Shown here: piece by piece, positions 1 to 32,810 of the stretch
Layout of the letters: each line of letters begins with the position of its first letter
Numbering within the stretch: position 1 is the stretch's first letter
Assembly: GCA_002256025.1 (NCBI GenBank)
Contig: NKIB01000164.1
Span: forward strand, 1-34,742
From: Asterionella formosa
Lineage: Eukaryota
Direction: 5' to 3'
DNA: 34,742 nt
Position numbers and translations under genes: made by a program
The notes under the pieces: generated by a model
The model's input: the letters and a program-made list of their open reading frames with translations, nothing else
Told to the model about the DNA's origin: nothing
Databases searched by the model: none

Positions 1-1539
1 AGAAAAAAACGGCCGTTCGTCCGATATTTCCCTCAAATGATCAAACTTCACTCCAAGTTCAACATAGTAGTACTAGATATACCGTGTTAAATTATAAAAT
101 GGGAATGAACGGAAGTTCAGACTTCGGCTGAAAAACCGGCCTACTGTCCGAACATTTCTACGAAAATCAGCGTAAGTGTCCGGTAGATGTCTGATGATGA
201 GTAATAGTAGAACATGTGCATTAATTGACTGCTGGTACCGGTACTGGAACTGGTAGTCTACTGTTTCATAAATGTTAAATACTGATAGATTTGCATGCAC
301 CATGTAAGGGTTCTAGTGGTACCAGTAAAAAATGCCATGGCCCATTGAGTTAGGGTGTTGTTTTTGAACCCTCCGACTAGAGGTAAATTCTATTTAATTT
401 TGGACCAATTTGTTCGATTGTGTCAGAGCAGCATTGATCAATCTGGCTGTCATGTTAAAATTCTGATTGAAAGATTTTTTCAGAAGATACAATGATGTAA
501 TGAAAAAGCTAAAAAGTGATTTCAATGGGTCACAGTGGCATATAGCTACTTTTTTCTGGATAAATGTATATTAATTTATGCACATTTTCAAGGACAGATT
601 AAGTCATGTGATAAAGCACTTGTCATGCATGGTATTACATGCCTTTTGACAACAAAGGTCTGGTGAAACACGTTTTTAACTTAGGAAAAGAGTAAAGTAA
701 ATATATCCATTAGCTGCTGGTATACCAGTAGCTACTAACCATTCATGATGCATGCGCATGATGATACCGTGCGCCTAAGTAATTTGGCATCTCCATAAAA
801 GTCAATACCAACAAGACAAGATTTTTTTGTCGAAAATGAGGTAGAGGTTCAAATCAATTTGGAATTTTTTTCTTGATCATCGTTTAGCATATGATGCGGA
901 GAGTTCTAAAATTACCATAATCTGTGTTTTCCCTGGTTCTTTGGTCAATCAACCATTTCAGGCAATCTATCATCTATTGAGATGAACAGCTGACTCCAAA
1001 TCTCAAACAAATTAAAAAACTGACTAGTCTACATGCTCAAGAAGGAGCGCATGAGAACTCTCAGAATTTACGTTTACATTCGTTTTGATAGCAAATCCTG
1101 TTATTCTGCGTTCAATTGGTCAAAACATTTTTTAATGGTACCGGTAACCATTAATTAGAGCTCTTTCTGAAGCACAACTTTTTGATGCTTTTCAAATGCA
1201 TACACATCGCTCAGGAAATGAAAGATTGGCTGATTTAACCCAGTAAACTGTTCCAGAATGGAAATCCTGATCATTGTCATTATGGCCGGAATCGAACCTT
1301 TTCTGAAAATTCACCATCATCATGTTTAATATATCCAATTGCCACTGGCAGATCCACCATCTTAGAAGGCTTGCTTGAGTAAGTACCGATATATCTGTGA
1401 TAGATTCCAAAGGAAGGAAGATTATGATGATGAATTGTCTTCTAGTATTATTAAGTATATTCCATTTACAGAAAGAATAAATCAGTGGTTTGCCGGGAAT
1501 CCTGTGAGATGATGGGAGCTTCCGATACCAGGCGAAACG

Positions 1540-2136
1540 GATGCTATCGGATTTTTGGCATATAAGACATATCTCAACTAATCAGCTATTGGATGGGATC
1601 AGGTGTTTTGCGGCCGCATTAGTCTTCACTGAGGAAAAAGCAATTTTCAGTTACTGGATGGAGCGACGACTACACAATGATATGCAACTGGCAGATATGT
1701 GGGTGGAACGGGTTGTCTACAATATGTGGTAGTTTGGTATTGATTCATGGATGAATAGGAACGAATATCTCTATGGAAAATCAGTAGAAGAACAACTCGT
1801 AAAGCAAATTCCTCAGGAAGTGGCAAACAAATAATCAGGCGATACAATCAGGATCAGATGCAAGTGAGCAACCAGGATCACTCTCTAATTGTCCTCCCCA
1901 TCCAGATACGCTTACGCAGACATTTTGTGGGCCAGAAAAGTCTGTGGGTAAAGACAGCCCAGTCGATATTGACTGTCAGTAGTTTCAACAATACCAGACA
2001 ATGGAGGATGATACTCACACACAAGCTCGTTTGGCCCCTTTGTGGTCGTAGTAACAACCTGATGGACGGAGACCATGGTGCGTTTAAGACCGGCCATCCT
2101 GAAGCCTCACCAGTGGCCTTCGGGACGCAAGTGTAA
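1540..2136 (+). mobile_element. Decayed 3' end of a non-LTR retrotransposon ORF (probable)
   Basis: Reading across stops and frameshifts gives '(*)SAIGWDQVFCGRISLH(*)' from about 1579, then 'MWVERVVYNMW*FGIDSWMNRNEYLYG' (about 1697-1777). These resemble the Q-x-x-IGW...GR-x-S-x-x-W and W-x-x-RN-x-x-L-[HY]-G motifs I recall from C-termini of stramenopile LINE-like ORF2 proteins. No RT core was recognisable. Confidence 0.5.
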
Positions 2137-3159
2137 TTTAGAGTTAGTTTAAATGTACTATAAAATGAACTTGAAGAACAACATAGTATAGTTTAGCATA
2201 TTCCTTTATCATTGCCATTACTCAGCAGAAGAGCTATAACGCAAAGAAGAAGTATAGAGTTTCCAGAACTAGTAAGTTTGGCGATGATTTATCTGAAACA
2301 GGCGATATGGCTTGGCTGAATAATACAGAGTTACTCCGAAAAATTTGGTTCCTGTCAAAATATTTCTTGAGAACACTTGTCAAGCTTGCCTTCATTTCGT
2401 TTACACCGCATCGGTTAGAGAGAGAAAGCGGACTCTGCGGTCGTGGTGGATTCGACTCCTGCATTCTCCATCTGTCTTTTTCATGTAGTCTCTTGGGTTC
2501 CAGGGGTGTGGCTGACGAAAATACAGGTCCCGTGCATGGTTTCACAGTACGGATGAATAAAACCGATACTAATTGTGTCCATTTATTTGGGCCCGAGTGC
2601 GATTATTGGATAGCTTTAACATAAAATGATAATCTGTTTTATATATTGATTGTTGAGAAAATTGCAGGACGCGAGCATACTGATGTGGAAGCAGGTGCGA
2701 AAATTAAGGAACAGGAGTATGTTGATATGGAATCACTCCCATGCTTGTTTGCTTGCGATGGCCTCCTGTTGGTCGTCTTTCTAGAATCAACAATTATTCC
2801 GTTTTTTAGTCACAGCACTAGCTGCTGTATCACTAGCATCTCATCATTTTAGCTGCTGGCTGATTGTAGCATGAAAAGCAATGATTCTTGCAAAAAGGAG
2901 AGATAAATCAGTAATAGTTGTTCAATTGAAAATAATTGCAAAGCGCACAGACCAAGAATCGCTGTTCTTACCTAATTTTATCTCTGAAATCTTACAAAGC
3001 ATTTTCGCTTCTGAAACACGAGCTAGATTACTTTAGCGAGTATTTGCAATTAACGAATAGAAATACAAAAACTATCAAGATAACAAAAAAGGCGCCAACG
3101 ACAAAGGCTTGAAAACGACCTTCATTTTTCATTGAATCTTGAATGTTCGTTCATGGAAA

Positions 3160-3940
3160 GCTATAATTTATTTGGGGAGGCAGCGTTCCGTGCTGCTATG
3201 ATGAAATCGCTTGGTATCAAAATGACAGGTCTGATGTATGCATGTGAGGGATGCGCACTAGCTAAGGCTAAGGCGAAAAATGTTCCAAAAAGTAACTTGA
3301 AGAAAATGTTATTAAACAAATGTGTGATGGTTTGCTGGTCATTCTAATAATCATGCTGGAGAGTCTGAAGACAAACTATGGGTACGTGAAATCATTGATG
3401 TCGAAGCTGCTTTTCTTGAAGGAGATATGGATGAGCAAATTTATATTGAATGGGCAAATGGGGTTTTAGAGTTTGGTTTCGAAACACAAGAACCAATGAA
3501 AAACAAATGCATTAGGTTGGAGAAGGCCATGTATGGCACAGTTCAAGCAGCGCTACAATTCTTCAAGAAAATTGTTCAAAACCTAACCAAAGTTGGATTG
3601 CAGCAAAGCAAGGTCGATCCATTTTTATTCTTCATCAAGGAAAACAACGCACTAATCATAATAATTGATACACATGCTGATGATTGTTTAATAGCTGGAA
3701 AGCCAAAAAATTATTAAATGGTTCAAAAATGAAATCATGAAACACTGCACAATCAAGGAGCTTGGTCCTTTGAAGAAACATTTGGGAGTGTGGTACAATT
3801 GGGGTCAAGATAAAGTGGGACGCTATTTGGATTTGAGCACTGATGATTTGGTGCATGTTACCTTGCAAGATTATCATGATATTTTTGGAAAGTATCCAAG
3901 AGATGCATTAACCCCAGCATTGCCTGGAACGATTAATTGA
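3160..3940 (+). mobile_element. Degenerate, internally deleted Ty1/copia LTR retrotransposon fragment (integrase Zn-finger region plus RT)
   Basis: 'LFGEAAFRAAMMKSLGIKMTGLMYACEGCALAKAKAKNVPK' resembles the copia pre-integrase/CxxC region. It is followed almost directly by RT motifs 'IIDVEAAFLEGDMDEQIYIEW', 'LEKAMYGTVQAALQF', 'QSKVDPFLF', a degenerate catalytic 'THADDCLIAG' (YVDD) and 'IKELGPLKKHLGVWY'. Frameshifts and stops are present and the integrase core is missing. Confidence 0.85.
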
Positions 3941-5054
3941 CGTGTACTTATGCGATATTCGACTGACACGTTATTTTACTGAACGATGCGAAACGTTGCT
4001 TTATAGATTTCTGGTGAAAAGTGAAGATGATAAAAATGGAACTGCATTGTTGAGGTTTTAAAAAATGGCTAACGAGTAATTCCTTCATATTTTTAGTAGG
4101 TGAAGGAAATCAAAATGGATAAAACAATGGAATTGCACCTACGAATTCAGAATCGGATCATAAGGAAAGGGAAGAGGCAGAAGTCAGAAGTCAGTCAGTC
4201 GAGTTTGAGAATCAGAGTGGAAGGTAGACGGGGCGGGAGGCATGTATAATGACCGACATCAAGATTATTGAAGAAAGGCAGGAGGAATCATGCATTAAGA
4301 TCATTGAAGTGAGGTGGGAGGCATCATGCTTCAAGAGCATTGAGACAATAGAAAAGGGGAACATTGTTTATTTGCACAGATTATAGAAACATTAATATCA
4401 TTTCTAATAGATGTAGCAGTAACATTATAATCCATTTCAACCTATTTTCTACAGCGATTTTGATCAGAATTAGCATCATGTTATCAAGATAGATATATGA
4501 TGAATGATTGTAAATCATTGGATAATGTTTGGATTATTATATTGTGTGTTGTTCATTATAAGTATGCTATGACATGATCAAATACTTATGCTACACATTT
4601 ATCTTACATAAAATGAAATAAGTATGATGTCGCAAAATTCTGTGCCAGTTAGCGTACAATACCTGTGATCTTATAAATATGATACTTTCTATTTGCAGAT
4701 GCATATATCGCCAAATGCTGTTTTACATCAGCCAGCTATTCAAATGTTTGCTGGAAACCAAATAAAACACACCAACTATTAAAAATTTTACTTGAAAAGA
4801 ATAACTATTGTTGCATATTATTTCTACAGTATTCACATTTACATGGAATACACCTCCAGATGTTTAATGGTTCCAATCCTCAAAATGAGCTTACCAACAT
4901 TTTCTTCCTTCCCAAGATCAGATCATCGCAACTTTCATGATTGCACAATCCATAATGGCACAATAGGACAATTAAGCCGGAGTAAATCATAGGAGTCAAA
5001 ATGTCCCAGCAGAAATTTGAATTATTCATGCAACTAATATTGGACAGAGGGAAA

Positions 5055-5415
5055 AGGTACCTACTACCCTGGTAGAAGTAAATGGTCTACACGAGGGTAC
5101 TGTAGTATGACTCCGGTACATACCCCGAGCTCGTAATACCTCGTACCACATCTATTACGTGTACCATGTCGAGTACCAGTACCTCGTACTCGGAATACCT
5201 GATACCAGGTACGTTGAGTTCTGGTACATGCTACTGTATCGTGATGGGCAGTACATGGCCGCTGGAAGTCACAAGGCAGGAGATTCAGGTACCGGTATTG
5301 TGATCAGCCATGTACTATCAAACGATTCATTCTACCGGGTACATGAACAAAATGACTTTCGTGTTTGGCTGGATGCATTTGGAAAGCATTGGCTTTTTGA
5401 TACATGTTACTGGTA
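5055..5415. repeat. Cluster of TA-CC/CCA-GG/TGG-TA words upstream of the guanylate kinase gene
   Basis: TACCAGTA 5174-5181, TACCAGGTA 5203-5211, TACCGGTA 5290-5297, TACTGGTA 5408-5415, plus many GTAC words. Confidence 0.75.
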
Positions 5416-5489
5416 TTAAATTGTGCATCAGTTGTATCTTAATGCCAACATCCATCTACACGTTCATCTTGTCCACAATATCACTCACC

Positions 5490-6791
5490 ATGACGTCTAT
5501 TGCTACTACGTATCCTCCTGTGGTCTTCAGTGGTCCCTCTGGAGTTGGGAAGGGAACGCTCATTGAATTGTTGACCAAGCGCTTTCCTGACAATCAATTT
5601 GGGTTCTCGGTGAGCCACACCACGCGAAGCCCACGAGACGGCGAAGTGGATGGGGTGCACTATAACTTCACCACTGTAGAATCCTTTCAACAAGAGATTG
5701 CCGCGGACAAGTTTGTGGAACACGCCGAGGTGCATGGGAGGTACTATGGCACATCCGTGGCTGCAGTGCAATCGGTGCAGTCCACCGGCAAAGTCTGCAT
5801 TCTGGATATTGATGTGCAAGGAGTCCAGAATGTTAAAAAGGCCGATTTGGAGTGCAAGTACATATTTATCGCTCCTCCGTCTATGGAAGTCTTGGAGGCT
5901 AGACTTCGAGGACGGGGTACCGAGAAGGAAGAAGATATTCAGACGAGGCTTGGAAATGCACAGAAGGAAATGGACTATGGCACTGGCGAAGGCAATTTTG
6001 ATGTCGTACTAAAGAATGACGACCTCCTCAAAACGTTTGAAAAGCTCTGCAATATCATGAAGAAATGGTACCCTCACCTCAAAGCTAGTATTCGTCCGAA
6101 CCCAGTCGTCTTCTGTGGACCAAGCGGAGTAGGCAAAGGGACCTTGATTAAAATGCTAATGGATCGCTTTCCAAATGATGACTTTGGATTTAGTGTGAGC
6201 CATACGACTAGAAAACCCAGAGAAGGAGAAGAAAATGGAGTGCATTACCACTTTACAACAGTGGAGGACATGAAGAAAGAAATCGACGAGGGCAAGTTTT
6301 TAGAACATGCCGAGGTACACGGGAATTATTATGGAACAAGGTGAGTGTTTAAAGGTGCATGGATTATAGTTTTGAACCAAGTTCAACGCTCATTTCATCT
6401 ACCCAACAGCATTGCTGCTGTGGAATCAGTGCAACAATCTGGCAAGGTGTGCATTCTCGACATTGATTTCCAAGGAGTTAGAAATGTCAAGAAATCTTCC
6501 CTGAAACCGTACTACATTTTCATTGCCCCCCCATCGATGGAATCCTTGGAAGCGAGACTTCGGGGACGTGGTACAGAGAGCGATGAAGATGTCAAGAAAC
6601 GTCTCGCCAATGCAAAGGCCGAATTGGACTATGGAAACGAAGCAGGCAACTTCGATCGTGTCTTTATCAATGCTTCCCTCGACGCTTGCTTTGAGGATAT
6701 GGCTGAACAGTTCAAGAAATGGTACCCGCAGCTGGATGAATATGCCCCAGATGACGGACCAACCAAGAATTGTACGTGCGTTTTGTCGTAG
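5490..6791 (+). CDS. GUK1: Tandem two-domain guanylate kinase with C-terminal CaaX motif (about 410 aa; exons 5490-6340, 6410-6791)
   Basis: Two full GK repeats, each with P-loop GPSGVGKGT, SVSHTTR, EHAEVHGxYYGTS, ILDIDxQG, FIAPPS and RLRGRGTE. Removing intron 6341-6409 (GTGAGT...CAACAG) restores YYGT-S-IAAV to match repeat 1. The protein ends ...KNCTCVLS*. The start is placed at ATG 5490 because the upstream in-frame extension does not look homologous. Confidence 0.93.
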
Positions 6792-6957: not shown

Positions 6958-7647
6958 TCATTGTTGATCCCCATTCTTTTCCATTTCGTTGAGTGGACAA
7001 TCAATAGTCTCTAGCTCATCAAACCCCATCATTTTCGTGAGACTCGCTATCATGTCATCTGGAGTGTCTTCTCGTCGCTCATACTCATATTGCTTGAAAC
7101 ATGACGCGTAATTGCACTCAGCAAAGCCTAGTTTATGTTCAAAGAGAAACCTTGACGCGGTATTGTCCTCGTTTATTTTGGAAAAGAATCGCCGGAGGTT
7201 TAATTCTTTAGTACCATAGAGCATCATCAGTAGACTGGCTTCACGTCCCAACCCTCGTCCTCTAAATTCCTGTTCGGCAATCATGATATCAAGTTCAGCT
7301 TGTTGATAGTGCGAGGGTGTTGTCGAATCCTCGTCGTCGTCCTCTGAAGACAGAAACAAATTGCAATCTCCCACCATGGCAGAAATGTTGCGAGTGACAA
7401 AGTCTCGTTCGTCTCCCTCGAACTGGCATTTTTCCTTCGCAAGCACAATAAAGGTACATTTGTCGTTATCCATTCGCCACGATGCTTGCATTTCCATTTC
7501 CTCCTCCAACGATAGAGGCTCCGACCCAGTCGCATCCAGCAAGCACGGATCCTTCATCCATTCGTGATAGTTCGCAACGTGTTCTGGTCGGTAAGGTACC
7601 AAGACAACTTTCTTTCCCACGATAGCAGTGTTGTAGTTGAGCAGCAT
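6958..7647 (-). CDS. NAT9: N-acetyltransferase 9-like GNAT protein (229 aa)
   Basis: 'MLLNYNTAIVGKKVVLVPYRPEHVANYHEWMKD...TGSEPLSLEEE...W...DKCTFIVL...MVGDCNLF...AELDIMIAE..FRGRGLG' is the NAT9 family signature with the GNAT acetyl-CoA motif. ATG at 7647; no intron needed. Confidence 0.92.
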   Translation of the reverse strand: MLLNYNTAIVGKKVVLVPYRPEHVANYHEWMKDPCLLDATGSEPLSLEEEMEMQASWRMDNDKCTFIVLAKEKCQFEGDERDFVTRNISAMVGDCNLFLSSEDDDEDSTTPSHYQQAELDIMIAEQEFRGRGLGREASLLMMLYGTKELNLRRFFSKINEDNTASRFLFEHKLGFAECNYASCFKQYEYERREDTPDDMIASLTKMMGFDELETIDCPLNEMEKNGDQQ

Positions 7648-9055
7648 GGTGATCCGGCCTCGAGAAATTCGCTTCCGAACGATGAATAACGAATGGGTCA
7701 CAAGATCTATGTTTGGGGTTATGTAGCCGTCATTTCCGTCGGATCATCACACCAGGATGACATAGGAACCAGTAGTTCTCCAACATACTGGTGTACCGGT
7801 ACTTCAGTTTCCTGGAAAGTCCGGTCCGGTCCGGTAACGCATGTTCTTTTATTATGCTTTCGATGATTCGTGCATGCCTATCCTGCAAGTTGCGGTAAAT
7901 GAGTAATTTAGCTTTGTTTTCCTTATAGTCCAAACCGTCTTTTACCGCATCTCCCTTCAAATTGCGTTCATTTTGCTGACATCACGAACTCAGCAAATTA
8001 AAATGTACGATAGTCGCACCTTTGACCCACTACTTATTTACAATATGCTGGCCAGCGTATAATGCCGTTAATTGTGGCATGATTTTGAATAAGGTTTTAA
8101 GTTCTAAATATTATCATTTTGGCAGAAATACAAAGCAGAATGTTTTGATTCGGCAGATAAAGTTGACTTCGCTTGAATCGAGGAAGTTTATTTTTGGTCA
8201 TTGGGTCATTGCTCGACTTTGCCATAGTATCTGCCAAAGTGATCACATATATAGCAAAAGTCATGGCGTGCCAACTCGAAAACGTTAAAATTACATGCCT
8301 TTGTATTTTACTTGTTCACGTAGGTAATCATATACCGGTATGTAGACATCTGACAGTTGCAGTGTGGCCAGTCAAGCAAAATTACCGAAACTTGCTGGTA
8401 ACCAGGCGAGATAGCGGTAGGCTGGCTTTCAATTACAAACATTTACCGTTAAGATATATAATAAATGCCGTTACTTTGTCATTCAGTAAATCGAAGTCGT
8501 GTTCTGCTAAATCTAAATTGTGTTCAACAACAACTATCAGGATTTTAGATCGAATGGAGACGAAACTGCGATTAACTGTATGGTATCTGGTACCAACTGT
8601 CCGTTCAGTTGATTGATATTCTAAATAGAAATTTCCTGTTAATGTTTTTTATGCACCCTCCGAGCCAAGCAATTCAGTAGGGCCAGCTAGTCAGCATCGT
8701 CCTGTCGATATGTTTCTGTGTTAACGTTATTTCAGTTACAACATTTACATAGACAACAGGTTACCATTCACCAATTGCCAGCCAAATGTCAAGCAAGGAT
8801 CGCCAAACGAACTAGCAATGAATGCTTTTATTTAGGCAGGAATATATATACCGGTATATGTTTATATGAAATATTTCGTTATGCCTGTATCTGCATATCG
8901 ATACATATATAGAAATGATACCGGTATATGGTTCGACAAAATGCAGTGTTTTTCCATTTCCGGTCTCGTGCACTTCACCTTGTTGCAATCATGTTGTAAC
9001 CATTTATTTACTTCCTTTGTTGTTGCTTCTATTTCTTTTTTACAGTAATTTATCC

Positions 9056-9148
9056 TCCGTATCGTCTCCACAATTCGACCCATTGCTGCTTTCTGTTTAC
9101 ATCCGTATCGTCTCCACAATTCGACCCATTGCTACTTTCTGTTTACAT
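9056..9148 (+). repeat. 46-bp tandem duplication (2 copies, 1 mismatch)
   Basis: tccgtatcgtctccacaattcgacccattgct[g/a]ctttctgtttaca at 9056 and 9102, ending 14 nt before the ATG at 9163. Confidence 0.95.
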
Positions 9149-9162
9149 GTTCATCATTTCTA

Positions 9163-9573
9163 ATGTCATCTACTACCCCCACCACAAATGCTGCAACAAC
9201 TTCTTTCCTTCGATCCTTGCAACATAGTCAAACTCAAGGCGATTTGATGTATTACATCTTACTGGCCATTGCCGGAGTATTATTGTGCGTCGTGATAATG
9301 GGAATGGGTTGTGGTCCAAACGTCGTCAGTGAGGATCATGATTATCGCTATCAACAAGAAGAAGAATCCACTGCATCATCGTATATTCGGGTAGTGACGG
9401 AAACGTATTGTGCACCTCATTCGGCCGAGTCATTTGATTCGAGGACACAGACAACGTCTCGCCACGACTTGAGCGAAAAGAAGAAGCAAGCATACTTGGC
9501 GCAGATTAATACGACGATACTAAATGACGCCATCAATGACAAGGATGTGAAGAAAACGAGTGGCGTTGAATGA
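9163..9573 (+). CDS. Hypothetical single-pass membrane protein (136 aa)
   Basis: ATG-initiated ORF with an S/T-rich N-terminus, one hydrophobic segment (YYILLAIAGVLLCVVIMGMGC) and a polar tail. No family recognised. Confidence 0.5.
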   Translation: MSSTTPTTNAATTSFLRSLQHSQTQGDLMYYILLAIAGVLLCVVIMGMGCGPNVVSEDHDYRYQQEEESTASSYIRVVTETYCAPHSAESFDSRTQTTSRHDLSEKKKQAYLAQINTTILNDAINDKDVKKTSGVE

Positions 9574-10383
9574 CAACGGAAACTTTACACATTGCGTGAG
9601 GGAGACCTGCAACTTACAACCAACAAAACCGCGCTCAATTGCCTCGACAACTTGAAAGTCTTGGAGCGTTTGGATGTGAAGATACGGTCCTTTTCCTCCC
9701 TTGTCTTTGTCAGTATCCATTTACACTTGCTACGTGACAATGACCCGTGGACGTATGCCAGAAGATAGCTCGAGCCCGAAAGCCGAAAAGGGAGGCGGAG
9801 GTTGTCGGCCTAAATAACCTCGCCGTAATTTAGGATAGCCCAGTCATTCGCGATTTAGCCTTGAAAGCTGTCGTTGGATAACAATTTAAACATATTGGGT
9901 TGAACAGGCTTACCATTGCCATTGTTGAGGCAATTTATTGCGTAATCTGTATGATATCCTCGAGTGGCCTTTCTGACTTTGAAGTGAAGGCCACCAAACA
10001 TACCTGGGTTGCATATGACGTAGCCTTCAGTACCTGATGGTAATGGTTGTGTATGATGAGCGTGATTCTCAATTATAAATTGAAAGTGTTGATGTCGGTA
10101 TGCAGGATGTTGCGTATATAGTGATAATATAGTATTAGACTTATCGGCTCGCATACTATGTCTTGCATTTTATTTTTCAATCGCAAATTGCATGGGAAAG
10201 GCAAATCATGTGTGCTTGCGTTATGCCCATTGTCCAAAACCATCAACCCATTCTCTCATCATTCTACTTAGTCGCAAGGGAAATCCAAAACGGATGTACT
10301 TGAGTTATGCCAACAAAACCATCAAATCATTCTCTCTTCGTTCCACTTAATCTATGGAGCGTCAGTGTTATTTATGTATCCTC

Positions 10384-10747
10384 TCATTGTTTCTTGCCGT
10401 CTTTGGCATCGGACGCTGCCTTCTTCTGAGCGTTCCAGTTTTCTTGTTCCTCCTTGGTAAACACTTGCCCATTTCCCTTGTTTTGTTGGTAATACTGTGC
10501 CCCAAACACAGCAGCAATGGCAAATGCCCAAGCTCCCATTTGTCCTCCCTGTGTTTTGTTTGTGTTCCACATCATATGAAGAAAAAGTTTATAAACATTG
10601 TGAGTACATAAATCTACTACCAAGATTGGTTTTTCATGCATATAATACACACACAGCAAGCAAGAAAGAGGGATAGTCCGGAATAACTGCTGTATCGTAT
10701 GATGCGATTCATATTCGACGTACTCTTCCTAATCCACCAGAAAACAT
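10384..10747 (-). CDS. Spliced microprotein, 62 aa, with one hydrophobic segment (exons 10747-10724 and 10548-10384)
   Basis: ATG 10747 gives MFSGGLGR, then donor GTACGT at 10723 and acceptor ACACAG ending at 10549. The phase-0 join reads GGQMGAWAFAIAAVFGAQYYQQNKGNGQVFTKEEQENWNAQKKAASDAKDGKKQ*. Confidence 0.65.
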
Positions 10748-11991
10748 TTTATTGATGGCTTGTTTCGCGTCCGTCATGATTGAAGGTTGTAGAATGTATG
10801 TCTACCGGTATTCTTCAAGAGAAAAGTAGTCTAGACGAAAGGAATAATCTTAACCTGTGTCATTGTATGAATGAATATACAGTATACGGTAAGCCAGCTT
10901 TCATTTACTACCAGGTACCGGCAATTCCCGCTCCAGCTATCGTCTTGCCATTTGGGTACTTCTAAGTAATTTTCAGGCTTTAAGTAGTTTCTTAAGTAAT
11001 TTTTATTGAGGGGCAATATGGGGCACATCGAATTTTTCGGTATTAAAATTGCCGATTTTTAGAGTAAGGTATCAGGTAATATGCATGGAGATGGTACAAC
11101 AAGCGTAAAACACACGAGAATGATTGTAAAAACCTGCAACATCAATGAAAATTGAACATGATGGTTGGAGCAACCAAAGTATGAAATGCGATGTAATAAA
11201 TTGCATCAAATAAGAAATAGAAAAAAATTGTTTTGGGTTTGAAATGAAGTAAAAAAAGGAGTTTCAATGGAGACGTAAGCATTGTGAATCATTGTAGTAC
11301 TTACACAGGCAACATTGCTTGACTTTCCATCAACACACAATCGAAGACCAAAAAAAGAAGGAAAAATGCTGAACCCAATTTAGACCTGCATCGTTATGTA
11401 GCGTAAACGGTCTGGTTGCTGCAGCCATGCGCATCGCTGTAGTAGCCTGACAAAAGAGTCTACAGAGATAATATTATAACGTGCTCAAAGTACTAAGTGT
11501 TAAAGTTTAGCATAAACCATGCATGGTTGTTTTCAGTATGACCCACATATGTAGGCTAGACGCTACCGGTAGAATATCCGTTAAGCATCATCACATGCAT
11601 GACTGGAGCAAAAACTTGCCACCAACATCAGATGTATCGATATCATTGTTTGTCCAACGAAATATGGACGATGCGACTACATGAATCCCTTGAGAAGACA
11701 GCAATCCAACAACCAACCGCATCTGTTAGACAACGAAATGCTACTGGTGTCATGACTGAACTGATTTCGCTTCAATCCGGTGATGATGGATGACGATTGG
11801 CATGATGGAAGGTGAATTACCGGAGTCCACATTTCAGGAGACGAACAAAAACAAGGTGAATTCTAGATATAAATTATTGAAGTCTGTAGAGTATATAAAA
11901 TGGTTTCCTCAAGTTGATTCCTTGCCGATTTCGGCAATCCAAGGGCTAGAAAACCGAGGGGCAATTGCTACAAATTGTAATGCCAAAATGC

Positions 11992-12103: not shown

Positions 12104-14102
12104 GCAAGCTAAAATTGACATATAACACTCGATGAGTTGGCAGTAGCTAGGTAAGCGAATGGCATGACGATAGCTAGTTTGTGAATTGCCTCAGCAATAC
12201 CCTTCTCGGTGGCTACATGCCTTCTCGTACACATGTGTACTCGCAGGCATGAGACCAGCTCGGGCGCGTTCTTAATACACGTGTACCTTAGTACTACATC
12301 AGTCATGATTTTACAAAATTTAGGTAAGATTTAAGGCTTAAATAATCATTGATAGACACCATTCTTTGGCCCTTCAAAAAAGGTACTCCTAGACTAGTGA
12401 TACATCCAGGTACCACATCTATTGTCACCAATTCTTAAAATCTGTAAATGCATCAGCATCAAACATATATTGTGCCATAACTACAATTATTTCATGATTT
12501 GCGGTCATCACGCCTTGCTATGGGCCCCAACCACGAACTTTAAATGCTACTCCATACCTGCATTTCAACACATCATCATTCTCCAAACAAAGCACTGCTG
12601 CAATAAATTGTTCTGTTGATTATAATTCCCACAGTAGTACATGGAAGCAAAAAGAACCAACTTTGCTGTGATCAACACTATTGGTTTCAATAATGATGAC
12701 AATAAAATATAATCAGTGCTGCACTTGTTGTTAAATTGACAAAATGTGCAACTACTGGCCTAAAATTTCGACTCCCAAAGGAAGATCTATTGCTGAGAAC
12801 AAATTTAATCTTCAATTTAAAGAAAAAAGATGGTGATGAGAGTACTTCAACACACATCAATGAAACCCAGACGCAATAGAAGACCCTACTACTATTACTA
12901 CTACTACTGCCTTTGCTTGTTCTTAATTCAGGTAGTGGTGATGGCAATTATAAATCCTTTAACTTCTACTTTTGTAGAAAACAAAAAGACTTGCACAATT
13001 TCAGAAGCAAAAGAAAATCCTCCAAGCAGTGTGATTTATGCATCTACATGTTTTCTTTTGATCAATATGTTACATAGGTTAGAAACACCCAAGTGATGTG
13101 ATGATAAAAGTCGTCTAAAGGCTGCCCTTTAAGGAAATCATAGAGTTGCAAGGCTGAGGCTATGACTCCTCAAATCTGATATGGTTTAGGCTCGGTTTTA
13201 TATTACGTCATGAACTTGGTGGCGGGATCATTATTTTCATCGGTTGTCACATGGTCATTTAAAGCCACCCAGGTTACAAATTTTAGCAAGAATGACCTCT
13301 CGAATAATGGAGATTCCAGGCATTATGTCCGATTTCTCGATAGTTGGTAAATAGCCCCAACCAAGAGAAGATGAAAGGAAATGGGTAATCTCATCTAACT
13401 CTTGATTGTCCTTTTCATTGCTTCATTGTCGTCAATTCCAAGTGCATCCAAAAAAATCATTACTCAACTGTTTATTCGTCTATCACAGCCATGCCGCATC
13501 AAGCATTGAAAGCACTTTCATAGAGGCTCTTTGTGATTCTCTAAATGTTCTCTTGTGATTTTCTAAATGTTCGCTCGAATTAATTTTCGTAACTGAGCTT
13601 GTTGATGTGAGATTGCCAAAAAGGTTCTCTCGTGGTTTCATCTGCTCTTTCTCTCTTGTTTTTGGATTAATCATCAAAATCATATCTGTCATTGAATCTA
13701 TCTTGAGGCGATGAGATGATTGATCTATAAATGCAGTAAATGAAATATTAGGACAAAAAAATTAATTCTTTTGTTTGTTTGGTTGCTTGTTACTGATGGT
13801 CAAATATCAAAACTGTCGGGAGGGAAATGAACAAGTCGCTGGCATGTTGCCATTGAAGATCTGTGATCCAATTTTTAAATTATCATGAGAACAATGGGAC
13901 AACGGTGGTTTGAATTGAGTAGTTATAGCTTGATACCTTTAAAATCATGAAGTGATAAAAAAAACAAAATTAAATGACAGCCCTTAGCCATTCAGTCCAT
14001 TAAACTACCCCTTGCTTTCTTGTAACAACATCATGTTATTTGATTGGCTAAGTCGGATACTGGTACCGTAAATATTTTCAGGGTACCAGGTACCTGAGGT
14101 TG

Positions 14103-14998: not shown

Positions 14999-15176
14999 TA
15001 CCTGGTACCAGTACACTGGTATTATATATCATTACTGATATGTACCGGTATGTATCCACCAATATACTATGGCATTGAATGAGAAGACAGCAGAATCAAA
15101 CCACTGTGGGAAAAACTGAGGTATGTAGGAACCATACTACCGGTATTTCATGTGATCGAGTACCTGGTACCTGGTA
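14999..15176. repeat. Cluster of chained TACCTGGTA/TACCAGTA/TACCGGTA words
   Basis: TACCTGGTA 14999 overlapping TACCAGTA 15006; TACCGGTA 15043 and 15138; TACCTGGTA twice at 15161 and 15168. Confidence 0.8.
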
Positions 15177-15352: not shown

Positions 15353-16161
15353 CCAGGGTTAGCATTGGCCTAACACCCGCAAAGTAATTTATGTACTCGG
15401 GAGTAAATTAAACATGGTCTACTTGCCCTTCAACATTTTTAGAAACGATGGTAATGACCCGTCGTCTAATACTGCATACAGTTTGTTCTGTGTAGTCGTT
15501 GTTTCGGGAGTCTTACATGCATACAGACCATGTCGTCAAATTACAAACGCAATAAGAGTTATATGAACCGCTATTTGCGATTCAAGGTACATACACTGTA
15601 GAGACGACAGATATTTCTGGTGCACGTCATTTTCGTAAACTTGCACAATACACAGCATTGCTGCACTGTACAGTATATGATGCAGAAGAAAGTTGTCAAC
15701 AAAAAATCAGATCCCAGCTACCGGTACTCTCTGCAAATGTCATACATACACAAAGAAGAATACCGATGCAACAGTATAAGTAATTAATTTTTGTCACCCT
15801 TTTCTGCGATGCCCATCTCCTCCGGGTCTTGGCAAGGCGTTAAATAAGCAATCCATACACGTATGGTAACTAAACTACTGGCATGCGATATGTGTAAACA
15901 ATACACCGGTAGATCATTCCTGGTGTTCCAGCGCGCTACCCAAAAATCTATATACAGTAAGTAATTATTGGCAATACAACTACAATAGTATATACATACA
16001 CACGATAGATATGCTATACTGTCGTCATAGGAAATAGACGACACATCTCGCGCTCTGTTCTTGAAGATCACAAAAACAAAACACCGATATTTCATTTCCC
16101 ATATTAGAACGAAGTCACAAGAAATCTTGATCTTTCTTTCGTCGATAATACAATTGCAACC

Positions 16162-17249: not shown

Positions 17250-18376
17250 ATGCCATTTAGCTACGGCACTTTTTCGAATTTATGTCTAAAGTGACATATT
17301 TATGTTGTTTTCCTTAAATATTCTTTTACTTTTTTCGGAATTTATTTGGGTCAATCCCAAATTTATGTGTTCTAAAAGAAAATGTATTTCAATTATCGAA
17401 TCATTATGTGATCACACCAATAATTATGAGTGTTTGCAACAATATCATATGTTGACCATCTAGCCATCGAGACAGTAAGATGGCAAAATTATGCTGCTCC
17501 ACAGCAATATTATGTTGCGTTCACCACATAATGAAATAAAGAGCGAGTCACCAATTCCAATTCACTTATTATTTTATCCGCTTTGACCTATTTCTTTAAT
17601 CTCAACTGCTAAAGAACAACACATGCAAGAGGAAGATTCACACAGTACTAGAATTAAGCTCATGCAGTAATGGACATATTATGTTAGCATATTTTTTAAA
17701 TTATTGTTGATTCTTGTAGAGTTTTCAATAGCCAGATTAGAAATAAAGCATCATTGAGCTTTGTTGAGCCTCACATGTCGCCATAGTGACTCAAAACTGA
17801 GATGTGACACAATGGCCTTCTCCTTTTGGAGAGGCTACAATGCGTCTACAACGATAACACAGCAACGAAAATAGGTAGGTAAGCTTTTACTAAATCGTCA
17901 GTTTTGTTGCCAATCCTATTTGACGAAGAAGTGTCATTGTATGAAAATCTGCTGTTATAAATTTTATTATCTATATAAGAAATGGTGAGGCATGCCTAAC
18001 AAGGAGAATAGTTTCAATTTGCAAAGGGTGAGATGATTCTTCAGCCGAAAGCTAAAAAAGACACAAACTCAAGTAAAAATCCAGGACAATGAAGTACGGG
18101 TATACAGTAAGAAAAATACATGTACATCTCATTGTCACCGTGCTTCATGGTCCGGTAATCGAGATGTTTAGCTTAGTCTTTATGAAACGTGTTTTACCGG
18201 ACCCTCCTCTGGTATGGGATACTTCACATACCGGTATTACAGGTGTCAGCAATAATGTATGTCCCGGTATGGCATTTGTTAATTATTATTTTATGTTATG
18301 TAGCTATACGTATGTACCGTTATGCAGTAATCCGTATCAGCTGGAGCAATAAAAATTGCCTTTGAACTAAAAAGCG

Positions 18377-21571: not shown

Positions 21572-21927
21572 AAATTGAAATTAGCCTTAAAATTGGGTCA
21601 TCGGGTCACAACTTTGTTCTTCGCAATGGCAAAAAGGAATTAGACAATAGAACAGAAGTGCTGGTGCAATCAATTGTCGTAATTTATCATAGCCGAACAA
21701 TGCAAGAGGAGTTCTTGAAAAGTTCTTTGAAGCTTCAACAAGGAGCGAATACAAAATGAGATCCATAGGGAAGGCATAATCCCATCAATTCCAGCAAAGC
21801 CAGACAAACAGTAGTAATTTATACTACATACCATTTACACTTAATTACGTTGTGACTGATGCTGAATATATTGCGTAAAAAGTGCTACTTCTATCATTAT
21901 CCAGGAACCGCAATATCGGATTTTGCC

Positions 21928-24900: not shown

Positions 24901-25044
24901 GTGCCAGAGCACATCGACGCAGGCCAACAGTTTTCCCAGGGCGTGCGTTTTCAAAGCAATGTCTGCTTCTTGGAGAAGTGCGAGCCATCCTGAAGCAGTG
25001 GCGACTGGAGGGACAGTCAAGGGAGTCATGAGAGCCGTCGACAT
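21928..25044 (-). CDS. RPN2: 26S proteasome regulatory subunit RPN2/PSMD1 (about 1011 aa; exons 25044-23888, 23806-21928)
   Basis: N-terminal 'ALLQE...HAL.KL...VDVLWHEVA...AAAVASRVFFHLE'. Intron 23807-23887 (GTGCGT...TGCAG) restores 'NWAKFSATASLGVIH'. PC-repeat motifs HGAALGVGL, ETQHEKIIRG, HTAVSDVSDDVR, ESFNPHVRY and GIIDAGGRN, and C-terminal PAPEPFEW. Confidence 0.97.
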
Positions 25045-25371
25045 CGTTCTTTGAATGGGGTGCTTGGCAAAACCTCTACGAGCACAGCGCTTTATTCGAT
25101 CGATTGATCGATCAAATGAATCAGATGCGGTCGATGAATGGATATGGATTGGCTGAAGTGTTCAAGGAGGTAACGAGAAGCAGTGCTCGATGAAACTTGG
25201 CTTGCAATGGTGACGATTACATTCAATGAATTCAAAGGGTGGTATGATGGCATGGATTCCATTGGATTATCCTTGCAATTCGATCACTTTACCGTCCTAA
25301 TGCTTCATAGGATCTACATAAGAGCGATACCGGCGAGGTACGGTACTTTCTTTGCGCAGGTCCCTCCCTTT

Positions 25372-25741
25372 ACCGTATCATACGAGCGGAATATACCGTA
25401 TACATACCGGTACTACTGGTACCAGGTAGCCCTGGTACTTACCATAGAAGGCACAGGCAAAATGAATTACTCGGCCGTTGTTAAATGTACATGAGCAAAC
25501 GCTACATAGTATTTTGCGGGCAGCAGGTACCAGGGTCCCGGTTACCATGTTAACCTGATCCTTGTACCTGGTACCAGGTACCACGACCGCGTTAGGGACA
25601 AAAGCTTCTCCAAGCTTCGTTGTCGATCGTCGACTGCGCATATTTTCGCGCAAAAATGATAGACTTGTAGTTTACTACCGGTACCAGTACCTGGTACGGT
25701 ATTATCGATGTACCGTACGGGTACTCGGAATAGTACCGGTA
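25372..25741. repeat. Dense chain of TA-bounded footprint-like words upstream of RPN2
   Basis: TACCGGTA 25405; TACTGGTA/TACCAGGTA 25414-25428; TACCTGGTA/TACCAGGTA 25565-25580; four-link chain TA-CCGG-TA-CCAG-TA-CCTGG-TA-CGG-TA 25676-25701; TACCGGTA 25734. Confidence 0.85.
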
Positions 25742-26485
25742 CCAGTTAAAAACTGTAAGCCACCGTTATTTTTCTCCATTTTCCGACTGAAAATATTTAA
25801 GTAATTTATCTATCGAAACCTGATGCAAGTACGAAGAGTATGTTCGACGATGCACTCTACTCAACGAATAAGTACCGGTAATTAGTTTCGATTCAGTGTA
25901 GAAAGCCATGAAGATCTAATTTTTTCAAAGTCATTAAGATTGTTGCATAGCGGTGGCTTACAGTGCATATTTTTCTATCCATACATGAGTATATTTCCCC
26001 CCTAAACCGTGATTATTTTTACTCCGTTTATACTACAGAAATTCTTTTCGTATTACTTCACCTGTTAGGCACGATACAATATGCTTTTTGCGCTTGCATC
26101 GTCACCAAATGCTTCTGACGCAAAGTGTATTCGAAAGCATGATGACCTCATACCCCTAATTAATTGTACTAAATTAATTCTATCGGAAGAACATTATCAT
26201 TCTTGTGCATATACCGGTACATGTATAGAAAAGGCGATGCCAGCTCAATAGAGTAAACGTGAAAAAATCCGTCTTTCGCAATTTCGCATCTACAGCAACC
26301 TTTGGGCTGTAATGAGTATTTAACAACTTACACAAAGCAACAATAAAGGTACAGAAGTATTTACTCGCTACATAAATCTGAACAACTGTATCTTGCAAAC
26401 TAAGTTCAAACTGTGCGTTTACTCCATTTAGCGGTGGCTTGGAGTTCAAAAGTCGTCAAAGCGGTGGCTTACAGTTTTTAACTGG
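25742..26485. mobile_element. Non-autonomous TIR element (MITE), 744 bp, Tc1/mariner-pogo-like, TA target-site duplication
   Basis: Perfect 24-bp TIRs: CCAGTTAAAAACTGTAAGCCACCG (25742-25765) and CGGTGGCTTACAGTTTTTAACTGG (26462-26485). Each is flanked by TA (25740-41, 26486-87). Internal partial copies of the TIR core lie at about 25950 (gcggtggcttacagt) and 26431 (gcggtggctt). The interior is AT-rich with no transposase ORF. Confidence 0.88.
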
Positions 26486-27372
26486 TACCTGTTTTCCTAA
26501 ACTTACATACAGTGGTAGCAACATAGTACTATATAGCCCAAATTTTGTCACATGACATATGAAGTAGTATAATAACTTGTTTTGATGAAAATGTAACTTC
26601 ATCGAAAGTATAGAATATCTGGTAATCATTTTCAGAGATGCATCCTGTGGTTACAGATAGGGTGCTCAAGAAATCCTTACCAGATATTCCATACTTATGA
26701 CAAAGTTACATAATCAAAGAACCTGGCTGAACAAGACCCCCCCCATTTCTTGTCTTTTCAAAATTGGGAGAGCAATGAGGAGATTACCATACAAATCTCA
26801 GTTATGAGTACCAAAATGTGATGTAAATGCCCTGGCATCTGAATCCTATCTGTACACAACAAGTGCTCCATGCAATTGGGGAAATAAGTTTCACCCTGAC
26901 ATACTAGTTCCAGCCACATCAAGCGAGTTCCAATGGAAAAGTACTCTTGTTCAAAACAATCATGCATGAAGCAATGACTGATGACCATTATCTGTGTTGG
27001 CCAGCATGTTTATATATGTATTGTATTGGGAGGTTTAATTATCTGCAGTGTCCAAATCATTGTCAGCAAATTTACATCAACTTTTGTTGGTACCATCAAA
27101 GTAGATGCAAGAAATGCAGCACCATGCCTTAGAACTGCCCCGGTGGAAACCTGGAAACCTTGGTAACCTGGTACTAGGTCTTGTCATTGCGATCTTTCCA
27201 TCGTAGATATGTACTTACTACCTGGTACCAGGTACCAGGTATATTAGTATTATCTACACATCATAACAATATCCATACTGTATTCGCAAGCATTTCTTCG
27301 TGCAGCCATGATCAGCGGAAACAGCAAAAAAAGAAAGCAACAGAATCACACAATAGAAGCGATATTGACACA

Positions 27373-29067
<1,695 letters not shown>

Positions 29068-29280: not shown

Positions 29281-30559
29281 CTACCGTTCTAGTGTCTTTG
29301 CATCTAGCAACAATTCCTCCATTAGAGAAAGCAAGGTAGTTAAGCCAATCTTGTACCCCTTGTCACCACATGATGATCTTCGAACATGCCCAAAGTCAAT
29401 CATTTTCAGTTCAACATGTTCCACATTATTTGCTTGACGATCACCTTCATACACAAACAGAATGGAACTGGCATAAAATGATAATCGGTCGTTATCTTCA
29501 AACCATGTCAAGAGCGACTTCAGTTTCGCCACGAGACGATGCAACTGTAGTATGGAGTTCCGCCTGCTAAAAAATAATCGTAGTGCTTCCAAAACGGAAG
29601 ATCGCGTCAAGAGAGATCGTCCCAAGGCTTTCCCAAACATTCGAAACCCCAACGCATCACCGTCGGGATGGTGCGGATCATGTATTCTCATATCTACGAT
29701 ACGAAAGCCAAGCACTGTTTGTGGAGGATATTTGGACGCTTCCCTTCGTTGTTTCTCGAGAGGTGCATCTGGTTCATACGTCTCTGTTCCCACTTTGATA
29801 TCCATCACACAAGGTTTGGAAAATCGGGAGGTCAAGTCTTGCAATACGACATAGGGGTAGGTGGGGGTGTCTTTCTGATCATGTTGCTCCGGGCTGTACT
29901 CAAGAACTCCATAGTACGATGGAATGAAGGGAACTAATCTTGCCAAAAGCAATTGTTCACGGAGCTTATGGTGTTCGTAGTTCTCCGAGTCTGCAACGAT
30001 GTTTTCGTGCAATAGTCGTTTCGACATCCAAGTGCCTATTAGGCTTTCAAGTGTGCTACGTCTCCCCGAGGAGCCTTGGTTCTTGGCATCGACCGATGCC
30101 ACTAGGTTAGCCTCATAAAATGCCACTTCCCTGATGCCTCGGTTTCCACTTTGCATCGGTTTTAGTATGTAGTCTGGTGCAAGTTGTAATATTGGCCTCT
30201 TCTTTAGGGAAATGCCTCCCACCTGACCAGTCATAATGGTGGGATGCTGAGTGCCCAACAAATTCGGAACCCGTCGCAATGCAGACGCTAAAATAGATTG
30301 GCAAACAGTAGCATCTGATGAATCAATCTAAAGAGTTTCAGGAATATTAGCAATGTCTTGTAAATAAATAAACAAAATTATCTTGTCTGTTAAAAGAACC
30401 AAGAACGAATGTTCCTACCATTGGACCATCAGCAAAGTTCTTCTCGCTTTCTTTCGGGCGATTCCTCGAGTGCGATTTTGCCCTCCATCTCAAGTACAGG
30501 CTAAAGGTGACGACAACAATAGAGCTACATGTTGCAAACCCAACAGTGATCCTGTTCAT
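29281..30559 (-). CDS. IPMK: Inositol polyphosphate multikinase-family (IPK) protein with N-terminal hydrophobic anchor, about 395 aa; exons 30559-30419, 30327-29281
   Basis: IPK motifs QVGG, REVAFYE, FIPSYYG, LQDLT...PCVMDIKVG (PxxxDxKxG), FYASSILFVYEG and MIDFGH. The phase-0 intron 30328-30418 (GTAGGA...GCTAAT...CTTTAG) joins the 47-codon exon 1 in frame. Subfamily (IPMK vs IP6K/IP3K) is inferred. Confidence 0.85.
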
Positions 30560-32810
30560 CCCCTTTCCTGTCTTCTGTTCTTATCGGTGACGAGGAGCGT
30601 GTGATGGTAGATCTAATTAACAAGTGTTGGGTTACATACCGGCAGATCCTGATCATCAAATACTTTTACACTGGTGGTATATATTTGGATCATCATTCAT
30701 TTCAATTTCTTGAATATATACGGTGCATGTGTACCGTGCTCTGCGAAATTGTGCTACCGGTACTGGTACCAGTTAAAAATGGCTTTGAGCCACTTGACGA
30801 TGTATACTGAAGGTAATACACGACCTACCGGTAGGGTGGAGACTGCCTGTGAGTATTCTTGTGTTCGAGGCTTGGGAGGCGCGAGTAGGTTGACCGAACG
30901 AGTGGCGCCCCCGGCGCACTGCAACCTTGAGGGAATTTGATTGCTGATATCTATAGCCCCTCAATTGATTGCCGTTTACTTAAGGAAAATCGACTGCCAA
31001 AATTGGACAAGAGTAGGAGGAGCTACATGAAGGCATGAAATGATGGTTTTCTTTAAAGTGTTGATGGCAATTCCACTACTTACATCCCTGCTATCTTCCA
31101 GCATGCTCCAATGTATACAAAATCTGGTCAATGATGTCTCAAGTACTGACTCTTCATCAAATGGATCTGGCTGGTTGTTGGATAATTCGACTTCTCATAT
31201 GATTCATATCGTTGCATCGTGCTTGCTTGATCATGGTGGCGCCAAAAATTCGGTTCCCCTTTCTGTTGATTTCCTATAGCCTTTCTTCCGGCCAAATACT
31301 TCTCTACATTTGATATGTAGTGATAAATAAATTAATGATTGTTCAAAAGCGACCTCAATGAGTCGTTGCATATCAAAACTCGAAAAGGTAGGTCAAAGTT
31401 AGGCTTCCATCTCGTCATTGAACCGGTATTTTCGTCAGATATGATCAGCCGTTAAATTTTAACTATATTTTTGTAGTATGCTTTCTACGTGTTCTACACT
31501 ATCTCAAATCAGATCTCGGCAGCAAGTTTTAGTGCTCATGTGTTGGCTTTTTATACTGCTCTACAATAGTATTGTTTCATTGCTTTCTAATCACAATATT
31601 TCTTTTGTTACTTCTGCATAATCTTCTACAATGACAACGAAAAGTCGTCAATCTCAATGAGCTATCGCAAACTCCGCAAAGCAGCCGGAACATGATGGAA
31701 CCAGTGTTCTGCATTAACTCATATTCAACAAGGAAGAGAGGACGGGTATGTGCTTGTTGATTTTTGTTGTCATATTTGAGTTTCCGCCATTGTCGAGTTT
31801 ACTAATTATGAAACATATTTCTTCCTCTTCAGAACATTGAGCGATGAAGGCTATTGTCATGTTACTCCTCCACTTCCTGACAATAGAACAAATCAGTATC
31901 CACTGGTCAAACCAGCTTGTCCAATGAGGTGAAATATGTTGCCAGTTGATTGTTGTTTTCACGAGGTATAATGATGAACACACACTACCATTATTCTTTT
32001 CCTGTTTCCCAATGCTAGCAAGCCACTTTTATCGAAACTCGCACGAAGATTGCAAAGTCTTCAGGTCGCAAACTATGTGGGCAAGAACATATCTCGCCAG
32101 CACCAACAACATATCACTCCATTGCTCCCTATCAACCTTTGTCAAACCTGTCCTCCTCAATTTTCCAAGCCACAAACGCCCACATCAGCCAGTAAATTTT
32201 CGACACATCCTGCTCCTCCTCCTGCTGGATACTACCAGAAGTCTGCATCGCCAGCACCAAATCTCCACTATCAAGCTGTTGCTCCTCCAAAGACTCCGCA
32301 ACCACAAGTCCGAATCAATACAGAAACCAGCACTGCCTCTAAATCAATTCAGGCATCGGTTTCTGCTCCTCCAGTCCCAATCTGAACATTTCTGAAATTT
32401 TTGTCGTTGCAACGACAAAAAAGTGTGAGTTGACAATTGTTAATGAAAATGCGTTGACAAAATTTCACACGATTTTTCTGCTGACCCAGCATTTTCTTTT
32501 TCACTTTTATTCTACTCCCTGCTTGTCATTTTCACGCCTTACCTTTCGATTTCCGTTTCATAGTACTTTGGTTGCTTAACAACATCGTGTCGAATTTTCG
32601 ATGCTTGTTACAATCATTCTTCTGTGACTATTTTTCATGCATATACCGGTAGTACCAGTATATTCGTGTTGAAATGGTCCGTACTCCTTCCCGCAGGCTG
32701 GGTCTCTCTTCACGTAGACTCTTACGTGATCGTGGTACTACCTAGTACCACTTACTTTCTCTCTTGTCTCTGCTTCTAGCCTTCCTTCTAGATAGACTAA
32801 TTGACCTTCC

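Follow-up and report, generated by a model that had tools for sequence, protein, structure and literature searches.

Transposon excision footprints are textbook knowledge and are usually seen singly, in experiments or in pairwise genome comparisons. The footprint of Minos consists of four terminal bases plus a TA. Passages of PMC6943129 and PMC3878927 describe how Tc1/mariner elements have their non-transferred strand cut a few bases inside the element, and passages of PMC6943129 have end joining leave 2-4 transposon bases, the first or the last ones, with a TA on each side, as in Sleeping Beauty, whose excision leaves TACAGTA or TACTGTA. A characteristic six-base-pair (bp) footprint at the donor TA is given for Minos, a Tc1-like element, in Drosophila (passages of PMC3386967), and transposable element excisions in rice were detected by close-genome comparison (passages of PMC4423477). 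Here we analysed a window of 34,742 nucleotides (nt), i.e. the whole stretch of DNA under study, which is nuclear DNA of a freshwater diatom (Asterionella formosa, contig NKIB01000164.1). Its non-coding part holds a family of short words with a few bases between two TAs, above all TACCGGTA. These words are probably donor-site repair scars of TA-duplicating cut-and-paste elements, namely Tc1/mariner-like MITEs (miniature inverted-repeat transposable elements) ending CCAG...CTGG; this is the best-supported explanation, but it is not proven.

TA-flanked words in non-coding DNA

A sequence-only reading of the window had counted at least 21 copies of TACCGGTA at 21 listed positions, and exactly these were found (21 copies vs. 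a mean of 0.12 and a maximum of 2 in 100 dinucleotide-preserving shuffles, none of which reached 21). The sibling words were also frequent, as that reading had remarked: TACCAGGTA and TACCTGGTA together occurred 13 times and TACCAGTA and TACTGGTA together 10 times in the whole window. A census of TA-spacer-TA words whose spacer itself lacks TA gave CCGG 21, CCAG 6, CTGG 4, CCAGG 7, CCTGG 6 and CCGT 4; the first five head their length classes, with next ranks of at most 4 for four-base and at most 3 for five-base spacers. Among all 8-mers and 9-mers of the window, these same words rank highest, behind only a C/G homopolymer. For ten control palindromes, built as NNCCGGNN or matched in composition, the count was 0 or 1 each.

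Six host genes in the window have Pfam support, and their coding sequence amounts to 11,005 nt (31.7% of the window); the non-coding share is approximately 68% (23,727 nt). The words were enriched 20-fold to more than 100-fold over an order-1 model of these 23,727 nt: 21 vs. 0.13 expected for TACCGGTA, 13 vs. 0.11 for TACCWGGTA (W, A or T) and 10 vs. 0.57 for TACCAGTA/TACTGGTA. TACGGTA/TACCGTA came to 8 vs. 1.3. Under the same model, non-coding DNA showed no enrichment of TACCTA/TAGGTA (9 vs. 8.2) or TACCATA/TATGGTA (5 vs. 3.4); TACCATGGTA and TACCAGCTGGTA were present in 0 copies each, and TACTAGTA was likewise not enriched.

A strict grammar of five units gave 35 loci with 44 units and a looser one (adding CCG, CGG, CCGT and similar) 42 loci, and the density was approximately 1.5 loci per kilobase of non-coding DNA. 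The absence of words from confident coding exons, already claimed from the sequence alone, was borne out: host coding sequence with Pfam support contains none of the 44 units (binomial P = 5e-8; units within one array are not independent, and by the 35 loci P is approximately 2e-6). Single-base variants of TACCGGTA were not enriched at the outer TAs (5 vs. 9.1 expected) and were enriched at the inner bases (21 vs. 6.7), the CpG transition being the sole strongly enriched one (10 vs. 2.45); CpG observed/expected was 0.82. No extended similarity was found among the flanks of the 21 TACCGGTA sites, indicating that no longer repeat is the source of the words.

Contigs from four public sequencing runs of four studies (X2, X6, X7 and X8) were placed on 7700-27699, and differences in length are given with the loci below. 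The strand is entered as '.' here and for the elements further down, except for the solo transposon end at 30769..30800 (+).

236..243 (.) TACCGGTA, flanked by degenerate CTGG-TA pieces
320..327 (.) TACCAGTA, TA duplication plus left-end tip of the older MITE
723..730 (.) TACCAGTA
1139..1146 (.) TACCGGTA, its first TA flanking the older MITE on the right
5174..5181 (.) TACCAGTA
5203..5211 (.) TACCAGGTA
5290..5297 (.) TACCGGTA, upstream of the guanylate kinase gene
5408..5415 (.) TACTGGTA
7794..7801 (.) TACCGGTA, 51 nt upstream of the GNAT open reading frame
8333..8340 (.) TACCGGTA
8849..8856 (.) TACCGGTA
8919..8926 (.) TACCGGTA
10803..10810 (.) TACCGGTA, same length in an X2/X6 contig covering 9119-10944
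10909..10917 (.) TACCAGGTA, one additional TACCAGG unit in the four other runs
11564..11571 (.) TACCGGTA, within a very high-copy element
14058..14070 (.) array TA-CTGG-TA-CCG-TA
14084..14092 (.) TACCAGGTA
14999..15013 (.) array TA-CCTGG-TA-CCAG-TA, same length and 0 gaps in an X8 contig
15043..15050 (.) TACCGGTA, same length in an X8 contig
15138..15145 (.) TACCGGTA
15161..15176 (.) array TA-CCTGG-TA-CCTGG-TA
15719..15726 (.) TACCGGTA, same length and 0 gaps in X2 and X8 contigs
18229..18236 (.) TACCGGTA, 148 nt upstream of the MIF4G-like gene
25405..25412 (.) TACCGGTA
25414..25428 (.) array TA-CTGG-TA-CCAGG-TA
25565..25580 (.) array TA-CCTGG-TA-CCAGG-TA, a perfect 16-nt palindrome
25676..25701 (.) array TA-CCGG-TA-CCAG-TA-CCTGG-TA-CGG-TA, 40 nt from the MITE
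25734..25741 (.) TACCGGTA, its second TA flanking the MITE on the left
25873..25880 (.) TACCGGTA inside the MITE, plain TA in one contig each of three runs
26212..26219 (.) TACCGGTA inside the MITE
27219..27241 (.) array TA-CCTGG-TA-CCAGG-TA-CCAGG-TA, 181 nt upstream of the dihydrolipoamide dehydrogenase (DLD) start
30755..30768 (.) array TA-CCGG-TA-CTGG-TA, adjoining the solo transposon end
30826..30833 (.) TACCGGTA
32644..32651 (.) TACCGGTA
32653..32660 (.) TACCAGTA, 1 nt past the preceding word

Array units are joined via a common TA, with up to four units per array. Of the 9 pairs of adjoining units, 2 consist of identical ones; A and T centres and 4- and 5-base units are mixed, so that the uniform neighbours expected of a micro- or minisatellite were not found. 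The loci are also clustered (12 successive pairs less than 100 nt apart vs. 4.9 expected, P = 0.0014).

Resident elements and the proposed excision-scar explanation

The spacers CCGG, CCAG, CTGG, CCAGG and CCTGG all parse as bases from the ends of an element reading CCAG...CTGG, as the sequence-only reading had proposed, and three elements with such features reside in the window.

322..1138 (.) older TA-flanked MITE, with ends CCAGTAAAAAATG... and ...CATTTTTTAATGG
25742..26485 (.) intact MITE of 744 nt with CCAG...CTGG ends and perfect 24-nt terminal inverted repeats
30769..30800 (+) solo transposon end beginning CCAGTTAAAAA, which over 27-38 nt shares 76-81% identity with the terminal repeat of the MITE

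The intact MITE was found with the boundaries claimed for it from the sequence alone. Its terminal inverted repeats (25742-25765 and 26462-26485) begin CCAGTTAAAAA, it is flanked by a 2-bp TA target-site duplication (25740-25741 and 26486-26487), and it holds three copies of a 12-nt sub-terminal repeat, CTGTAAGCCACC; it shares its TA duplication, inverted repeats and multiple copies with non-autonomous elements of the IS630-Tc1-mariner superfamily. Its contig depth was approximately 60-155 times that of neighbouring single-copy bins in the four runs (25709-26375 vs. single-copy: 17583 vs. ~153 in X2, 8160 vs. 52.7 in X6, 321 vs. ~5 in X7 and 382 vs. ~5.5 in X8), such depth, summed across contigs, not being a copy number. 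The older MITE has arms of 31 nt (318-348 and 1112-1142, 81% complementary), begins CCAGTAAAAAA and has a TA on both sides. All three CCAGT-ended elements of the window adjoin a word through a common TA (words 25734, 1139 and 30755), and 79 of the 1685 non-coding TAs (4.7%) lie inside words. The only further TA-CC...GG-TA inverted-repeat pairs in the window, besides the MITE (0 mismatches) and the older MITE (4 of 16), were array-to-array pairs.

In the proposed mechanism, an element would insert at a TA and duplicate it; a few terminal element bases would stay on each flank at a later excision, and end joining would fix TA-(terminal bases)-TA. Every scar would add one TA, and re-use of these TAs would build the arrays. 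We offer a specific chemistry more tentatively, as less likely than not, in which cleavage would give each flank a 4-base 3' overhang of sequence CCAG. Paired in full register, the overhangs would match at their outer bases and hold two C/A mismatches: CCGG would follow if both were repaired to G:C, and CCAG or CTGG if repair proceeded from one strand or if the site was replicated unrepaired. A shift by one base would permit a pairing like the CAG pairing of Sleeping Beauty, with a central A/A mismatch, yielding CCAGG or CCTGG in equal numbers. A one-parameter model (p = 0.84 for G:C repair) gave 21.8 CCGG, 8.4 CCAG plus CTGG and 0.8 CTAG vs. 21, 10 and 0 seen (chi-square P = 0.28), and CCAGG vs. 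CCTGG (7 vs. 6) is near the model's equal numbers. The forms outside the 4-base model (TACCTA/TAGGTA, TACCATA/TATGGTA, TACCATGGTA and TACCAGCTGGTA) were not enriched.

Comparison across strains and copies, the check suggested by the sequence-only reading, yielded two clean one-unit differences among the 12 indels listed of 57, the words making up approximately 1% of the compared stretch. At word 25873, a single contig in each of X2, X6 and X7 lacks 6 letters at 25872, leaving a TA instead of TACCGGTA in a MITE copy; this is the one site at which a plain TA was seen in a homologous copy or allele. At word 10909, TACCAGG is inserted behind 10908 in one contig in each of the four runs, giving TA-CCAGG-TA-CCAGG-TA. 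The same check went the other way at no fewer than four loci (at least 10803, 14999, 15043 and 15719), which keep the same length in contigs 0.2-3% divergent from the window, indicating that most words are older than the strains. In two further contigs the gaps were not located, and they are not counted as evidence: one of X8 with 13 gap letters and a net gain of 1, which fits +7/-6 over 10803 and 10909, and one of X2 with exactly 6 letters missing in a span that includes 8849 and 8919. Contigs with unlike upstream sequence end on the 25565 array (28 in X2 and 26 in X6), and 62 contigs of X2 with unlike downstream sequence end on the 27219 array, indicating that the genome has many such arrays at other places. 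Deletions were rejected as the source of the many joints like that from 25582 to 27219; their sides have 18-23 letters, and they were read as contigs of other loci with similar arrays.

Points against excision scars and rival explanations

Several results weigh against excision scars or against the chemistry proposed for them. Most MITE copies keep the word at 25873 (depth without the word 268 of 3203 in X2). Both one-unit indels are undirected, gain or loss, and the 7-base indel at 10908 copies the neighbouring unit, as slippage would. Among the 12 of 57 indels and 15 of 175 joints listed, no site was found in filled, scar and empty states, and in the same 15 joints no other allele or strain had an element at a word site. 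The scars are mostly old, and their formation is not observable between these runs. CCGG is solitary (19 single, 2 arrayed) and CCWGG arrayed (10 arrayed, 3 single; Fisher P = 1e-4), which random scarring by one family does not predict; with 2 of 9 neighbours identical, slippage also fails to explain the arrayed CCWGG. The 500 nt upstream of each of the six genes are rich in word loci, together holding 11 of 35 (12.6% expected, P = 0.003), an enrichment that a cis-element would equally give. CCAG and CTGG can equally be CpG-deaminated CCGG. The 4-base overhang on which the chemistry rests was reportedly described by Arca et al. in 1997. Overhangs of 2 or 3 bases are given for the superfamily in passages of reviews (PMC3878927).

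The search for an autonomous transposase, likewise suggested by the sequence-only reading, was negative in what it covered, which also counts against excision scars: none of the 146 open reading frames of at least 55 amino acids (aa) outside the host genes of the window matched a DDE transposase family, and terminal-repeat scans of metagenome contigs, prokaryote genomes and viral contigs gave no autonomous copy. The scans returned a single metagenome contig (L001), one prokaryote match at chance level, in a metagenome-assembled genome of Acidobacteriota, and none among viral contigs. L001 (1206 nt, 27% guanine plus cytosine) has a bacterial-looking lipoyl-domain frame in its left 490 nt and the terminal repeat at its extreme end, preceded by TA, TACTGGTA and TACGGTA, and may be a chimera; its two nearby word-like 7/8-mers (vs. 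0.1 expected, P = 0.006) fit a pattern picked post hoc and carry little weight. A 91-aa frame spanning word 26212 gave one weak protein among two candidates, and this route through paralogue variation was dropped. The earlier picture of scars from one element family thus stands in part: the multi-copy MITE, the three elements adjoining words and the two one-unit indels support it, and the solitary CCGG and arrayed CCWGG, the upstream enrichment and a possible CpG deamination behind TACCAGTA/TACTGGTA were not predicted by it.

Excision scars might also have been written by another chemistry, which we regard as rather unlikely, though as a serious competitor of the 4-base overhang. A 2-base stagger would leave CC per flank, lossless joining would give TACCGGTA, one additional retained base would give CCAGG/CCTGG, and TACCAGTA and TACTGGTA would be later CpG deaminations of TACCGGTA. 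The reviewed overhangs of 2 or 3 bases, the strongly enriched CpG transition of TACCGGTA and the CpG observed/expected ratio are all in line with this. However, CC overhangs cannot pair, so annealing gives no uniform 2+2 product; the one-sided products (TACCTA/TAGGTA and TACCATA/TATGGTA) were not enriched; and a CpG decay of 32% should bring visible TA decay, which the 5 vs. 9.1 outer-TA variants do not show.

The words may instead be a functional cis-element, be it a palindrome bound by a dimeric factor or an element of promoters in general, that selection keeps in promoters whatever its origin. The host gene models and the Copia-type remains are as follows.

5517-6791 (+) three-domain guanylate kinase gene (Pfam)
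6958-7743 (-) GNAT acetyltransferase gene (Pfam)
18377-21571 (+) MIF4G-like protein gene (Pfam)
21928-25044 (-) RPN2 gene (Pfam)
27400-29067 (+) DLD gene (Pfam)
29281-30327 (-) inositol polyphosphate kinase gene (Pfam)
3328-3717, 33771-34205 and 34151-34609, Copia-type reverse-transcriptase remains (RVT_2 matches)

Each of the six genes has at least one word locus at most 500 nt upstream of its approximate start codon, and the enrichment given above was obtained for these upstream windows (5017-5516, 7744-8243, 17877-18376, 25045-25544, 26900-27399 and 30328-30827; 3,000 nt). The two Copia-like stretches (1200-5100 and 32700-34742) hold zero word loci vs. 8.8 expected, the core is a perfect palindrome, and the outer TA positions are invariant, all of which would suit a regulatory site. 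On the other side, the 9-mers alter half-site spacing by one base, which dimeric factors seldom tolerate; units overlap via common TAs, with at most four units to an array; some words (25873, 26212 and 11564) sit within MITEs; strains and copies differ by whole-unit TA-duplicating indels and not by substitutions; and the six genes are functionally unrelated housekeeping genes. A promoter bias is also expected from insertion preference together with the mostly-promoter non-coding DNA of a compact genome. The promoter bias and the absence from Copia-like stretches can be explained by an insertion preference for open promoters or by young retroelements, and could be explained by a regulatory role. 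We consider a cis-element improbable. The transcription-factor alternative raised by the sequence-only reading is weakened, and retains the upstream enrichment at six genes in its favour.

Finally, the words may be decayed element tips, i.e. a TA duplication plus the first terminal-repeat bases, with arrays of 7-base units made by replication slippage. At 320, TACCAGTA does combine the TA with the outermost bases of the older MITE, at 10908 the 7-base indel repeats the adjacent unit, CCWGG units are concentrated in arrays, and arrays like 27219 terminate dozens of unlike-flanked contigs. However, a CCAGT-ended repeat cannot have TACCGGTA as its tip, and the A-rich continuation of the terminal repeat follows no word locus besides the element ends 320, 25734 and 30755. 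Slippage should copy faithfully, yet most adjacent pairs differ and their centres and unit lengths are mixed, and a solitary 8-mer in unique DNA is not producible in this way. We consider such an origin improbable. Hairpin-type (hAT-like) footprints were rejected, since flank copying would not give a constant word.

Further features of the window were recorded alongside. The DLD exon matched diatom proteins with 80-94% identity, and the sequencing runs containing the stretch were mostly labelled freshwater metagenome. Three guanylate kinase domains lie in two adjoining open frames on the same strand (5304-6791), which may represent one gene with tandem domains or result from a tandem duplication. 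At 16957-17072, G14 is followed by a 10-N assembly gap (17003-17012) and C54; the homopolymer pair around the gap possibly arose in assembly. At 14581-14592, 12 nt identical to the core of the MITE terminal repeat and followed by CAGTACC (E = 3.2, chance level) may be a decayed solo end. A 131-nt hairpin-like element (26586-26716; 46-nt arms, 80% complementary) lies in a stretch that is multi-copy in the compared runs, and inverted short repeats of CCAAAA type, with 22-nt arms 86% complementary to each other, lie at 15294-15355, a place that the contig comparison passed over as repetitive. By far the highest repetition in the window is that of a 1.27-kilobase element at 10920-12190 with 40-nt imperfect terminal inverted repeats (78% complementary) and a depth in X2 of 57,000-147,000 vs. 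~153 for single-copy DNA; TACCGGTA lies inside it at 11564 and TACCAGGTA adjoins its left end. The element lacks an evident target duplication, and a single copy does not settle where it ends; CCGG ends were considered for it and dropped.

Significance and comparison with known systems

If the words are excision scars, the mechanism would be one already known, and the density, uniformity and arrays would make an unusual variant of it. Footprints would then be dense and uniform enough for counting as words, and a single genome would hold a fossil record of transposon excision, beyond that of insertion, together with a natural spectrum of the outcomes of double-strand-break and mismatch repair in a diatom. 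It would also mean a mechanism lengthening promoters by 6 or 7 bases per event, and a caution for motif discovery, as a transposon scar may be what scores as the strongest 'promoter motif'. A more far-reaching view, doubtful at present, is that cut-and-paste scarring by a Tc1/mariner-type transposase with a 4-base stagger is a main writer of this diatom's non-coding sequence, with scars before every gene examined and as the window's most over-represented oligomers, arrays seeded by new TA targets, a ratio of CCGG to CCAG/CTGG/CTAG that reads GC-biased mismatch repair, and perhaps some scars co-opted by promoters. A full-text search, whose coverage leaves out most subscription journals, found no published description of such dense scar words.

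The rice mariner (DTT) and Stowaway-type MITEs resemble the diatom elements in that non-autonomous TA-duplicating elements far outnumber autonomous ones (passages of PMC4423477). By contrast, the excisions detected in rice, over all superfamilies, mostly carry deletions or filler DNA, and the passages of that paper mention no uniform over-represented scar word. As for Minos, TACCGGTA, TACCAGTA and TACTGGTA are likewise six-base insertions at TA, and the title of the paper cited for the footprint in the passages of PMC3386967 names heteroduplex-formation repair. Sleeping Beauty, as far as passages of PMC6943129 describe it, likewise has two TAs around terminal bases, with annealed 3' overhangs and a central mismatch repaired either way, and the diatom 9-mers, 7 with A and 6 with T at the centre, conform to the same scheme. 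The diatom words differ in that their inner bases are CC..GG and not C.G and that their main product is a 6-base insertion; moreover, the footprints of Sleeping Beauty are known from experiments, whereas the diatom words are fixed in a wild genome and arrayed.

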